From a virus, in the IMG/VR virus record IMGVR_UViG_3300044957_000619: a stretch of 64,000 bases of DNA; one strand, 5' to 3'. Made by a program: the position numbers and the translations under genes. Shown in pieces: positions 40,701 through 62,148 of this stretch. The notes beneath the pieces were generated by a model. It saw nothing but the letters and a program-made list of their open reading frames with translations. It made no database searches and was not told the origin of the DNA. Each line of letters begins with the position of its first letter. Position 1 is the first letter of the stretch.

Positions 40701-40923
40701 ACTTATAAATATTGGTTTCCGCAATATATTGCTGGAAACGAGACGGCCTCGACTTTATAATAAATACTATATACGCTGGGTTCGGCCTTAGGAGTATGCG
40801 CTAGATGATCTAGGAAGGATTATATGACACCGTCATATTCAATAAAGAGCACCTATATAGCAAAAAATCTTACCGCGCGGCAAAAACATGCATAACCTCC
40901 CGCATCATCTTGGGGGTGGTCTA

Positions 40924-41050
40924 CCCCTTTAACGAAACTCTCCCCACCCCCCCTATTTGACCCCCCCGATCACCCCTTAACACACCCCCATACACCACCC
41001 CCCATACCCCCATAAAAAAAGGGGGGCTATTGCCCCCCCATGATCACCCC
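40924..41050. repeat. Tract of about 10 C4-C7 runs (G-runs on the minus strand)
   Basis: Directly visible; non-coding. Confidence 0.9.
41014..41039 (-). terminator. Intrinsic terminator ending the early module
   Basis: GGGGGGC-AATA-GCCCCCC followed by T7 on the minus strand. Confidence 0.8.
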
Positions 41051-41069
41051 ATTTAAATCAGCGGCACCT

Positions 41070-41324
41070 TTACGCGGCCCGGGTCTCTGATTGCGATGCT
41101 CTTAACTCGGCAGCTGCTATGTTATCAGGATGACGGAAGTCTTGTTGTATACCTAACGTCTCCATCACGTGATATATGGCACACCACTTAATGCCACACC
41201 ACTTACCTCTGAGGCGATCGGTTAATGCATCTTCTGCACCATACCATTGCTGTGCCATCATGTAACGTAAATATGCTTGGGCTTCTTGATTCTGGATCGC
41301 TTGGATCATGTTCTGCTTTGTCAT
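41070..41324 (-). CDS. Early hypothetical protein
   Basis: 84 aa; has its own repeated promoter. Confidence 0.7.
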   Translation of the reverse strand: MTKQNMIQAIQNQEAQAYLRYMMAQQWYGAEDALTDRLRGKWCGIKWCAIYHVMETLGIQQDFRHPDNIAAAELRASQSETRAA

Positions 41325-41329
41325 TGTCT

Positions 41330-41410
41330 TTCTCTTTTAATTAATAATAATAAAGATAAGAAATATGTTTCATATATCCTAATCTTTTAGCAACTTTTTT
41401 TACTTTTTTT
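41330..41410 (-). promoter_or_regulatory. Repeated early promoter (variant copy)
   Basis: A-tracts, then TAGGA-N-TATCTTTA, then AAAAGAGA leader. Confidence 0.7.
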
Positions 41411-41415
41411 TATAG

Positions 41416-41444
41416 CAGAAATCCGACGCCTTTCGACGCCGGAT
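41416..41444 (-). terminator. Hairpin/terminator after the AAA+ gene
   Basis: ATCCGGCGTC-GAAA-GGCGTCGGAT; weak U tail. Confidence 0.55.
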
Positions 41445-58740: not shown

Positions 58741-58783
58741 AACTTGTTTATCCTTTTTATAACTGTTTATTTAATATAAATAT

Positions 58784-60826
58784 TCATTTAGCAATTTCCA
58801 AGAACTTGGAATTCAATGTTCTAGCAACTTCTTGCATATTCTTCGGATCGATAAATTTAGCATCTTGTCCGTACATGGTATGAAATGGAGTCTTTTCATA
58901 ACTACGTCCACTATCAGCAATAAAATAACTAATAACATTGATACCTGATTCTCGGAATCCATTGATGACTCTGCGAGTAAATTGAACGCCATCGTATCGA
59001 TAAGCAACACCTGATACATCGGTTGGGTATCCATCTGAGTAATTGATAAAAATGCACTCGTCACCCTTTGCATCTCGTTTAATATCTTGTTCAATGCTCT
59101 TAAATGCCAATCCTTCCGGAGTACATCCAAACGTATCTAGATATTTGAAATAGTTACGAATCTTACTCATTTTATCTTGTGCCGAATCGTATGCATACAA
59201 TGTAATTGCTTTTTCTCGGTTACTTATTGATGCTTCGGTACCGCGCAATGAAATTTGTACGCGTATGCCGGTTGTCATTGAAGCAGCTTGTGCAATTGCA
59301 ACGGCTGACATAATGGCATTACGAAATTTGATACCAGTCATCGATCCAGATGCATCAATTGAAATATGAATAAAATAATTCTTGTATCGATCCGTAACAA
59401 TGCGATGAAACACGTTAGCATTGTCATAACCTAATTGCGAAATCAATCTGCGATCAATTTTACCTGTTTGCAAACGAGTGGTCTTTAAGGTTCGGTCCGC
59501 ATTTCGAAGTTGCAACTTGCGTCCCAATGCCTTGCCTAAAACGATACCCTGCGTAACAGTTTGGTCATTTTGAACAAGCGTACTAACACGAGGTCGATCA
59601 AATTGTGCATCGTTTGCATAATTCAATTTACCAGAAACATAATCATTAGAATAAGACGTAAATAAATATGGCATTGCTGCGATGATACCCGGAGTCAATT
59701 TCTTGATAACAATTGTATCAACGAAATCTGAAGTACCAGATTCATTTGTTGCTACTTGACGAACCTCTGTGCCAGATTCTCGAATTGCATTAACTCTGCT
59801 TGCCTGCGTTTTAGTCAATTTACCCGTTTTTTTGTTGTCACCTTTAAGGAAGTCTCGTTGCTTTTCAATTGCCGTTTCCAATTTTTTAAGATCATTTGCT
59901 GACAATGAAGCTTTACCATCAACGCCGCCTTTGGTTGCTTCGATAGAGTCATCGCCTTCGCCATCTTCATCGGATGCATCACCGCCGCCGCCTTGCTGAG
60001 ATTCATCGCCGTCTTGCGGTTGCACTTTGTCTGAACCAGCAGCTGCTTCTGCTTCTGCTACAGCATTCTTAACCAATTTGTATACTTTACATGCAACTAA
60101 CAATGCATCTTCGGTAGATTGCAATCTTTGAATATTTCTAAGATCAATCACATTCCAAATTTCTTGCAATGCTGCAAGAGCTTTCAAATTGCGATTAAGA
60201 TTCGTTAGGTTGATGATATGAAACATGTAATCCTCCCATGTCTCTTGACATTTCTCATTAGCTTGAAGCGCTCTGTCGATAACTTTGTCATTGAAGTACT
60301 TATCATACATTGCCTCATAATACATACGGTATCCTGGCGCATTTGTATAGATATAAAAATCAATGCGTCGATCCTCAATCCAATTCAATAAATCTTTAAT
60401 AATGCTAAAGTCACTGTGAGTCATTGTCATATCTGGATCAAGTCCATTCATCCGAACAATTTGTGCCATTGGTGAGCTTGTTAAAATTCCACCCTTGAAC
60501 ATGTTAAAGTCAGTCAAAGCAATATGTGAACCTTCATGCAATGCTAATCCAACAGCCGGATCGAAATTCTTGTCATCAAGCTTGGTGCCAATTACAACGG
60601 ATTCGCCATCGGTATAACTTGCATCTGTAGACTGAAATACTACGGGAATTGCTTTGCCTGTTACAATGTTAACAAAATTAGCAATGGCACGTTGTGTTGC
60701 AGCCAACTTGGTATAGTCAATACCATCACCTCGTTTAAAATTTGTATGAAAATCATCCGTTAACCAAAAGCTAGATGCTGACTTTGAATAATATCGTTTG
60801 CCATCAAATTTACCTAATATACTCAT
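58784..60826 (-). CDS. vWA-domain protein with an N-terminal HExxH region (CobT-like)
   Basis: LHEGSH, IEDRRI, MIDAS motif IDASGSM, TPEG, YSDG. Confidence 0.85.
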   Translation of the reverse strand: MSILGKFDGKRYYSKSASSFWLTDDFHTNFKRGDGIDYTKLAATQRAIANFVNIVTGKAIPVVFQSTDASYTDGESVVIGTKLDDKNFDPAVGLALHEGSHIALTDFNMFKGGILTSSPMAQIVRMNGLDPDMTMTHSDFSIIKDLLNWIEDRRIDFYIYTNAPGYRMYYEAMYDKYFNDKVIDRALQANEKCQETWEDYMFHIINLTNLNRNLKALAALQEIWNVIDLRNIQRLQSTEDALLVACKVYKLVKNAVAEAEAAAGSDKVQPQDGDESQQGGGGDASDEDGEGDDSIEATKGGVDGKASLSANDLKKLETAIEKQRDFLKGDNKKTGKLTKTQASRVNAIRESGTEVRQVATNESGTSDFVDTIVIKKLTPGIIAAMPYLFTSYSNDYVSGKLNYANDAQFDRPRVSTLVQNDQTVTQGIVLGKALGRKLQLRNADRTLKTTRLQTGKIDRRLISQLGYDNANVFHRIVTDRYKNYFIHISIDASGSMTGIKFRNAIMSAVAIAQAASMTTGIRVQISLRGTEASISNREKAITLYAYDSAQDKMSKIRNYFKYLDTFGCTPEGLAFKSIEQDIKRDAKGDECIFINYSDGYPTDVSGVAYRYDGVQFTRRVINGFRESGINVISYFIADSGRSYEKTPFHTMYGQDAKFIDPKNMQEVARTLNSKFLEIAK

Positions 60827-60884
60827 ATGCTCTTTATTTTATATAAAATATGAAATTACTATTCAGTTTCCAACCAAATACAGC

Positions 60885-60908
60885 AAAAAGGCGACATTTC
60901 TGCCGCCT
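60885..60908 (-). terminator. Intrinsic terminator
   Basis: AGGCGGCA-GAAA-TGTCGCCT followed by a T-tract. Confidence 0.8.
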
Positions 60909-60925
60909 CTTTGAGCTATGAAAAA

Positions 60926-62101
60926 TCAGAATGAGGTTTCTTGTCCGTTGGCGTCCGTACCGGTATTAAAGATGTCTTTCATTTCGGTTGCCATATGCTT
61001 TTGAATGATCTGCTTAACAAAGGTCCTTTCAGAATCTGTACCACCAGATGCATCAAAGAAAGGAAGAATTGCAACCTCTGCAGCCTCAGACAAAGAAAAG
61101 CCATCAGCTAACAAATCACATACGCGCACCGTCATACGAGTGGATACCATTGTGGTAAGTTTACCTTCTTCGGATCTCCATTCTTTGCGTGTTGCATCTG
61201 CAATATCTGCTACTGCGTGAATCAATTCGCGGGATACTGTCGGGAATCGTTTTGTCAATAAATCTTCTTCTTGAGATAGTGATAAGATGTCAACTTCAAT
61301 GATTTCAAAACGATCCATCAATGCTCGGTCTAATACTCGAGTGGATGTATATTCGGTACCAATGTTTGCTGTTGCAATAAACGATACACCTGATGCAACT
61401 CGAATGGTAGGCGAATTGATGTCTTCATCCAATCGCAGATACCTTTGACCCTCATCCAATACTGTCATCAAGATGTTCCATGCTTCAGGGTGTGCACGAG
61501 ACAACTCATCAAGCAAAATAACTGCATTTTGTGTTTTAATTGCTTTAACGAAAGCCGATTCGTCAAATGATGTTTGGCCATCAACGAAATGCGTATTACC
61601 AATCAATGTGGATCTTGGATCTTGTGTTGCACCCAAGTTAAAATAAAAGAATGGTCGATTGGTTGCTACCGGAAGATCTTTTGCGGCTTGCGTCTTACCA
61701 CAACCTGCCGGGCCAACCATCATGATGTTTTTGCCACGCACTGCCGATCGAACCAAATATTTCCATTTGATGTCGGACATTTCCAATGTTGCAGGCTTAA
61801 TTTTATAAGCATTCTGAATTAGGCTAAGCACTGCATCTTGTTCTTGTGGCATAAGTTGTGGTGTTGGTTGTGACTGTTTAATGTGTGACTGTTTAATGTC
61901 TTCTAGTTCAATGCCGGCTTTATTCATACGCTTTGCACGGCCGGTTACTTCATCAAACAACAATATTTCGTCGTTGTTAAATGCATGCTTAATCATTACG
62001 GCACGAAATAATTCGGTAATGTCTTTGCCCGTGCTAAATTCAATAATACGTTGATTGCCATTTATCAAGGTTGGCACACCAATAACTTTTTTGTTTTTCA
62101 T
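60926..62101 (-). CDS. MoxR/CobS-like AAA+ ATPase
   Basis: GPAGCGKT, ILLDELSRA, FIATAN, LDRALMDRF. Confidence 0.9.
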   Translation of the reverse strand: MKNKKVIGVPTLINGNQRIIEFSTGKDITELFRAVMIKHAFNNDEILLFDEVTGRAKRMNKAGIELEDIKQSHIKQSQPTPQLMPQEQDAVLSLIQNAYKIKPATLEMSDIKWKYLVRSAVRGKNIMMVGPAGCGKTQAAKDLPVATNRPFFYFNLGATQDPRSTLIGNTHFVDGQTSFDESAFVKAIKTQNAVILLDELSRAHPEAWNILMTVLDEGQRYLRLDEDINSPTIRVASGVSFIATANIGTEYTSTRVLDRALMDRFEIIEVDILSLSQEEDLLTKRFPTVSRELIHAVADIADATRKEWRSEEGKLTTMVSTRMTVRVCDLLADGFSLSEAAEVAILPFFDASGGTDSERTFVKQIIQKHMATEMKDIFNTGTDANGQETSF

Positions 62102-62148
62102 AACTCTTTATTTTCTATAAAATATGAAATAAAGCGTTACATTCCAAC

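Follow-up and report, generated by a model that had tools for sequence, protein, structure and literature searches.

Natural bacterial 3' untranslated regions (3'UTRs) that close the start of their own gene are, to our knowledge, very few (icaR and hbs), each in a single species. Long-distance closure of a start site is also a feature of the MS2 replicase start. In the icaR mRNA of Staphylococcus aureus, a 3'UTR segment pairs with the initiation region of the same mRNA and lowers initiation (PMC3868564), and in Bacillus subtilis distal sequences complementary to the ribosome-binding site (anti-RBS), hundreds of nucleotides (nt) downstream, block initiation and speed decay (PMC12697547). Here we describe a 64,000-nt stretch of phage DNA (IMG/VR record IMGVR_UViG_3300044957_000619; hereafter the window, bases 39384-103383 of a 158,320-bp genome with 34% G+C) in which the nucleotides directly behind the stop codon of a MoxR-like ATPase gene are complementary to the start codon region of that gene. 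Judged by comparison with relatives, complementarity between the start and a stop-proximal 3' element is under selection in two, probably three, genes of this phage. A search of the literature found no description of such an arrangement in phages.

The likeness to icaR is that a 3'UTR can pair with the site where its own gene is initiated; in the MoxR gene and in an early AAA+ gene this complementarity is kept by compensatory change. In icaR an anti-Shine-Dalgarno (anti-SD) motif lies within a long 3'UTR, whereas the phage element has the start codon as its target, the host doing without SD pairing, and stands directly after the stop and before the terminator. Unlike icaR, the arrangement recurs in at least two genes and co-varies across about 50 uncultured phages, and the RNase III step of icaR is not known here. 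As in hbs of B. subtilis (PMC5737220), the ends of the same mRNA would pair, coupling translation and decay, but the hbs pairing acts on RNase Y access in the 5'UTR, whereas the phage helix covers the AUG. Anti-RBS sequences are depleted from natural B. subtilis genes (PMC12697547), whereas the phage element is positively conserved. In Q-beta, translating ribosomes open a long-distance helix in which a start site is locked (PMC2978339); such RNA-phage helices couple two cistrons of an RNA genome, whereas the mRNA of a DNA phage would couple a gene to itself. What sets the phage case apart is the start-codon target, the position at the stop, the occurrence in several genes, the phage setting and the strong comparative support.

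The MoxR unit consists of the following parts, and seven non-coding sites proposed earlier as anti-leaders are lettered (a) to (g) throughout.

60926..62101, minus strand: MoxR-like AAA+ ATPase gene, 391 amino acids (Pfam AAA_5 4.8e-21, CbbQ_C 6.2e-06)
62094..62106, minus strand: start region of the MoxR gene, -5 to +8, GAGUUAUGAAAAA; 5' strand of the long-range helix
60913..60925, minus strand: site (a), anti-start motif UUUUUCAUAGCUC, directly 3' of the MoxR stop; 3' strand of the helix
60880..60912, minus strand: intrinsic-terminator-like hairpin and U tract at the end of the MoxR unit (13 pairs, 60913->60884)
62117..62149, minus strand: promoter-like GGTTGGA-N-TTTCATATTTTATAG upstream of MoxR, kept in nearly all relatives; a putative promoter

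The 13 nt after the MoxR stop codon (60926-60928) pair with the gene's own start over 13 bp, CAUAGCUC being the sequence on the 3'UTR side, and this motif is the sole sense-strand intergenic copy in the genome. A sequence-only reading of the window had placed the site between stop and terminator, opposite its own start, and had named the gene MoxR; the placement holds, and the name is borne out by the AAA_5 and CbbQ_C matches. The unit is flanked by a conserved promoter-like element upstream and the terminator downstream, and in a genome-wide scan of self-pairs MoxR ranks at the top (-16.3 kcal/mol), with gene 50786-51172 third.

A protein-guided scan of IMG/VR returned 262 MoxR relatives, and the best 80 loci of the 262, at 67-93% protein identity, were fetched and reduced to 55 distinct sequences. 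With the start ATG anchored on the CAT of the motif, and a helix counted as kept when at least 9 contiguous pairs form, the helix is kept in 47 of the 55. Pairing is complete (100%) from -1 to +5 of the MoxR start; positions -5 to +7 are paired in 83-100% and +8 in 72%, and pairing falls to 28% at -6 and 13% at both -7 and +9. Altogether 94.8% of cells are paired, compared with 33-51% in registers displaced by 1-3 nt. Co-variation scores 0.120, versus 0.076 in shuffles, none of 500 reaching the observed value, with double changes at four pairs; self duplexes stand at -15.9 kcal/mol versus -14.3 for permuted partners (0/10000), and an energy matrix of eight variant classes gives a mean of -17.0 on the diagonal and -11.9 off it. 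These permutation figures ignore relatedness, and compensatory events mapped on the tree are the stronger argument. Changes on both sides of the helix occur in at least three clades of the MoxR protein tree:

Clade L050/60/61/62: start GGUUAUG with CAUAACC or CAUAGCC; the -4 pair changes from A-U to G-C, and L062 adds C-G at -5
Clade L073/78: CAGUUAUG with CAUAGCUG; the -5 pair changes from G-C to C-G
L080: GAUAUGAAAG with CUUUCAUAUC; -2 A-U, -5 A-U and +7 G-C

Position -2 alone carries U.G in 29 sequences, C-G in 10, U-A in 4 and A-U in 1, and one-sided switches among U.G, C-G and U-A are many there. The number of A residues after the ATG follows the number of U residues before the CAU (L044, L049). 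Besides, the neighbouring terminator has been swapped for many unrelated hairpins and the motif stays, always just 5' of the terminator; in L035-37, L039/40 and L053 motif and terminator are both gone and the next promoter directly follows. The CAU of the motif lies 5-12 nt past the stop codon in 44 of the 47 relatives, and in full-length folds of six divergent MoxR mRNAs the helix is part of the minimum-energy structure (P about 1). Of named phages that have a MoxR relative, the nearest is Microcystis phage Mel-JY01 (53% identity). It lacks a 3'UTR of this type; its protein is longer, another gene follows at once, and the case is uninformative. The comparative data thus show that pairing between the MoxR start and its 3'UTR is under selection, in the register of sense-strand RNA.

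The layout recurs in an early AAA+ ATPase gene.

42412..42426, minus strand: start region of the early AAA+ gene, GAGAGAUACAUGAUG; full-length folds pair it with the 3'UTR of the gene (P 0.8-1.0)
41451..41466, minus strand: site (e), the anti-start motif of the AAA+ 3'UTR; most relatives have CAUAUCUCUC, the window CAUAUUUCUC
41415..41447, minus strand: terminator-like hairpin behind the AAA+ gene; relatives keep it, with minor compensatory changes

As had been claimed, site (e) lies in the AAA+ 3'UTR ahead of the hairpin. About 17 of 22 distinct sequences (29 relatives) keep the motif, a few nt past the stop and before the conserved hairpin, and the common form CAUAUCUCUC is an exact complement, 10 nt long, of the start GAGAGAUAUG that L112 and others have. 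The two bases before the CAU track the second codon (+4/+5), with AACAU facing AUGUU (L104-107), AUCAU facing AUGAU (L092, L098, L110) and UGCAU facing AUGCA (L116), the exceptions being L111, L112 and L095. Self duplexes are again stronger than permuted ones (-11.9 versus -10.8 kcal/mol, 17/10000). Comparison of the relatives therefore supports selection for same-gene pairing between 3'UTR and start in the AAA+ gene as well.

A third, probable case is a small membrane-protein gene, 50786-51172.

51170..51187, minus strand: start region of 50786-51172, AUAUGGAGGAAACUUAUG; duplex with the gene's own 3'UTR at -15.1 kcal/mol (P up to 1.0)
50764..50785, minus strand: site (g), 3' flank CAAAGUUUCUCCCGUAUUGGUUGG, complementary to its own start or, alternatively, to 51193-51213 upstream

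The flank is complementary to AUAUGGAGGAAACUU in the start region. Five relatives retain this duplex, in part through compensation (AAAC:GUUU versus AAAA:UUUU, for instance). No terminator stands beside the site; on these five relatives, the same-gene pairing is likely real. Pairing of the flank with 51193-51213 also co-varies, GAUACGG, GACAUGG and AACACG being found on both sides. The two partners of the flank are mutually exclusive, and the upstream pairing takes in the GGTTGG of the next promoter; site (g) may be a two-state element.

Two of the remaining sites are hairpins.

43047..43100, minus strand: site (f), 5' leader hairpin whose outer CUCUC/GAGAG stem holds the purine leader (ATG at 43043-43041)
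46898..46937, minus strand: site (d), hairpin with the 15-nt loop UUUCUCUCUCUUAUU (46906-46920); belongs to a structured non-coding RNA, 46866-47030, and lies close to its 3' end

Site (f) folds as had been described (-24.2 kcal/mol, z -2.86) and is a conserved cis hairpin, kept in G001, G002 and G005 with 5 nt inserted in an internal loop and one inner-stem pair changed compensatorily from G-C to A-U; the outer CUCUC/GAGAG stem shows no variation, and its pairing is consistent with the sequences but unproven. Site (d) ends a 170-nt RNA (fold z = -4.15) downstream of a 27-codon frame. The window, G001, G002, G005 and L136 share its loop and the GGG/CCC closure without any change. Their stems are not the same yet stay complementary (GGAUCCCGGG/CCUGGGAUCC, GGGACUCGGG/CCCGGGUCC, GGGGUCCUGGG/CCCGGGACUCC), in registers that differ between lineages, and a U tract directly follows the hairpin in three lineages. 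The loop finds exact complements of 7-9 nt in all seven of the seven intact early leaders, versus at most 7 nt in 190 other start regions, and of 1000 shuffled loops 3 attain its mean energy on these leaders. Since the strongest targets of the loop in the genome, ranked by energy, include unrelated G-rich sites, no single target can be named, and since neither the loop nor the leaders vary, the two cannot show co-variation. In GibS of Bacteroides (PMC7366714) and in 3'UTR-derived small RNAs (sRNAs) the seed lies beside or inside the terminator hairpin, and the loop of site (d) on its variable stem is alike. The GGG/CCC-closed loop complementary to early leaders is therefore present as proposed, and the anti-leader RNA drawn from it is plausible only: that site (d) may be an anti-leader sRNA acting in trans is a fair hypothesis and should be taken as that.

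The sequence-only reading had joined all seven sites into an antisense network against the phage's start regions. Every sequence that it quoted was found on the minus strand at the positions given. However, reverse complements of start regions (8- to 10-mers) are not enriched in the sense intergenic DNA of the finding region compared with 200 dinucleotide shuffles (z 0.0, 0.7 and 1.1), the very result that it had named as speaking against a general network. Shuffling of single elements left site (b) ordinary, the 11-nt match of site (c) unusual, and sites (d) and (e) unremarkable by best energy. With relatives added, sites (a), (e), (d) and (f) are clearly beyond chance and (g) is probably so; the co-variation of leader and anti-leader that one would look for in relatives is found for (a) and (e), probably for (g), and not for (b) and (c).

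The many purine-leader starts on which the network was built do exist, mostly as one target family.

42441-46830, minus strand: promoter/leader cassette copies, each ahead of a small early gene

The early purine leaders are largely copies of one cassette of about 90 nt, present in 8-9 copies between 42.4 and 46.9 kb and laid out as AAAAAGTTTG..GGTTGGATCGCATT-N16-CTTATCTTTAAGTATAATTAAAAAGAGAG-N-ATG, and as members of one cassette family they are therefore not independent targets. Beside these copies, the start region 42783-42805 of gene 42504-42782 (minus strand) can pair, at -15.8 kcal/mol, with the T-rich promoter spacer 42440-42475 of the next cassette, and read-through transcripts might mask the leader of that gene.

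Sites (c) and (b) did not hold as anti-leaders.

40841..40864, minus strand: invariant 24-mer TTTGCTATATAGGTGCTCTTTATT; site (c) forms its last 11 nt, and it precedes the gene that follows the early block
47606..47620, minus strand: site (b), CAUAGACUCUUUAUU, in a non-coding repeat field; partly conserved

Site (c) had been taken for an anti-leader of the gene after MoxR, labelled vWA, a label for which there is a sub-threshold CobT_C VWA match only (E = 0.024) and which is therefore weakly supported. The leader of that gene is changed in G002 and G005 and site (c) is not, lying as it does within a promoter-like 24-mer of the form TTTGCTATATAG(G/A)TGCTCTTTATT that is exact in 28 IMG/VR contigs with diverged flanks. 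Upstream of it come a G-rich tract and a GGGG..CCCC hairpin. A further hairpin follows it (about 40822-40838), whose stem changes compensatorily (AUAUGAC/GUCAUAU, AUAUAC/GUAUAU, UAUGCC/GGCAUA), a co-variation read directly from the sequences. The core TTTGCTATAT also occurs upstream of site (f), and we read site (c) as a promoter or 5' leader element. Upstream of site (c), 40920-41020 (minus strand) is very G-rich, with many G4-G7 runs, just past a strong terminator (41039-41020) at the end of the early block. Site (b) does no better than shuffled versions of itself and changes in G001 and G005 independently of the MoxR start; no co-variation is seen, and the claim that it pairs with the MoxR and vWA starts is not supported. 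Around it, 47200-47750 (minus strand) holds nine same-orientation copies of TATTTTTAG in a non-coding field of about 0.8 kb; arrays of this type are kept in G001, G002 and G005 with 9 to 17 copies and differing sequence between the copies, which suggests protein-binding iterons of an origin or packaging site.

A second promoter-like type, GGTTGGA-N-TTTCATAT(T/A)ATATAG, stands ahead of MoxR and ahead of its downstream neighbour. The early gene 44394-45131 (minus strand) encodes a sigma-70 family protein with regions 2 and 4, which could read the TTTGCTATAT-type or the GGTTGGA-type promoters.

As to the host, distant DNA matches of the phage are Flavobacterium and Bacteroides phages, and region 40700-48000 has no DNA match in the deposited phage collection. 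The minus strand holds nearly all genes between 32 and 64 kb. One of them, 51638-54076 (minus strand), encodes an 812-amino-acid phage protein that combines SprB repeats with a PKD-like domain and a type IX secretion signal (CHU_C); it looks like phage-encoded cargo for the host secretion system and is a clue to the host phylum. Gene leaders contain 50-57% A and an SD-like core in 28% only. Because of the SprB/CHU_C protein, the DNA matches and the A-rich leaders with few SD-like cores, the host is taken as a member of Bacteroidota. In Flavobacterium johnsoniae of this phylum, mRNA structure tunes initiation and SD pairing is unused (PMC6847099, PMC7797042). Among Rfam 15 covariance models, only tRNA-Glu reaches the gathering score in the window, and region 40700-48000 has no match at E <= 1; this tRNA-Glu (UUC), at 54115-54187 (minus strand), is the only tRNA of the window and its only Rfam match. 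The window differs from the genome sequence by one base, at position 66.

We favour, with moderate confidence, the explanation that self-contained units (MoxR, early AAA+, probably 50786-51172) carry stop-proximal anti-start elements which close the finished mRNA. These elements are 10-15 nt long, lie within about 10 nt of the stop and, in both ATPase genes, stand just 5' of the terminator hairpin; the 5'-3' mRNA pairing that the sequence-only reading had offered as one option fits the same-gene pairing of (a), (e) and probably (g). Once the 3' end is made, the tail would fold back on the 5' end and bury the AUG in a helix of 10-13 bp, which should block new initiation because the host phylum initiates on open A-rich leaders and not by SD pairing. 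Ribosomes would thus load during transcription, and a finished, idle mRNA would be locked. Since the helix begins at or within a few nt of the stop, where a ribosome would cover most of it, termination should reopen the start: the terminating ribosome would melt the helix and briefly free it. The leader hairpin of site (f) would follow the same logic in cis, and the invariant pyrimidine loop of the site (d) RNA may act in trans on the leaders of the early cassette.

Several observations weigh against this explanation. Pairing of own start with own 3'UTR is not general across the genome, where start and own 3' flank form duplexes of -6.6 kcal/mol, not stronger than the -6.5 kcal/mol of non-self pairs. 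In control folds of 54 other genes, the start pairs with the last 60 nt at a mean probability whose median is near 0.07, though some controls reach 0.45-0.63, so predicted end pairing is not rare and is by itself no evidence; the comparative data are. The AAA+ pairing in the window amounts to only -9.5 kcal/mol, inside the non-self range, its ungapped register fits only 12 of 22 relatives, some of the pairing there depending on register shifts, and the motif fits every leader of the early cassette, which leaves its partner ambiguous; weak in the window and fitting all cassette leaders, site (e) makes a weaker case than site (a). Site (g) is without a terminator, its flank runs into the GGTTGG of the next promoter, it has a second, competing partner, and its relatives number five only. 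Finally, intramolecular pairing, lowered translation and reopening by the ribosome are steps that we infer.

The same motifs could instead work in trans, the motif and terminator hairpin being released as a 3'UTR-derived sRNA that binds MoxR (or AAA+/early) starts and gives delayed negative feedback or shut-off. The constant layout in the MoxR relatives, of motif, short A-tract and terminator hairpin, is the minimal anatomy of such an sRNA, with the seed directly 5' of the parental terminator; it is found also in L077, L080 and L046, whose motifs are 15-34 nt away from the stop, and the AAA+ motif would suit all early-cassette leaders. However, 44 of the 47 MoxR motifs begin at or a few nt from the stop, which a trans-acting RNA does not need, the co-variation is with the start of the same gene, and the kinetic advantage lies with the intramolecular partner, so that we rate this alternative as rather unlikely. 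That the 5'-3' helix mainly protects the mRNA, by shielding the 5' end or by creating or hiding a nuclease site, and does not limit translation, seems to us distinctly unlikely. The helix does tie the extreme 5' region to the 3' end beside the terminator hairpin, and the 5'/3'-UTR interaction of hbs mRNA modulates RNase Y cleavage (PMC5737220); yet its centre is the AUG rather than the 5' end, which is left free with the bases upstream of -5 unpaired, and hiding the start codon would be expected to reduce translation where SD pairing is unused (PMC6847099).

We think it improbable, by a wide measure, that the full network exists as proposed, with at least seven non-coding sites including (b) and (c) forming an antisense layer on early and middle starts. 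The exact 11-nt complement of the downstream-gene leader at site (c), a match length found in 1 of 150 shuffles, the invariance of (c) and (d) across relatives and the leader specificity of the (d) loop do point that way. Against them stand the lack of enrichment over shuffles, the constancy of (c), within its promoter-like 24-mer, where the target leader differs (G002, G005), the drift of a non-significant (b), and early leaders that are one copied cassette. It is extremely improbable that the matches are due to chance, or that a DNA-level inverted repeat (a protein or recombination site) flanks the genes. The DNA is AT-rich, the matches are short and single-genome statistics are weak, but conservation with compensatory change in at least three clades speaks against chance. 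The dominant U.G pair works in sense-strand RNA only, and a DNA inverted repeat would thus carry a T/C mismatch; on this ground, and because all 80 loci have the same gene order and orientation, an invertible segment or protein site at (a) was rejected. An antisense gene at (a) was likewise rejected, as the reverse-complement ATG opens a frame of only 3 codons in most relatives.

Returning to the self-closing mRNAs, the interaction is recorded in about 50 divergent phage genomes with clean compensatory changes, and comparing a gene's own stop-proximal sequence with its own start provides a comparative rule for finding more such elements. We tentatively suggest, as a possibility that we would still bet against, that self-closing mRNAs are a regular means of control in a large Bacteroidota phage clade and act there as a self-coupled translation timer, with the site (d) RNA switching early genes off. 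The resulting model is testable: translation of these phage genes would be limited to the lifetime of transcription, or would be self-sustained by the flow of ribosomes.

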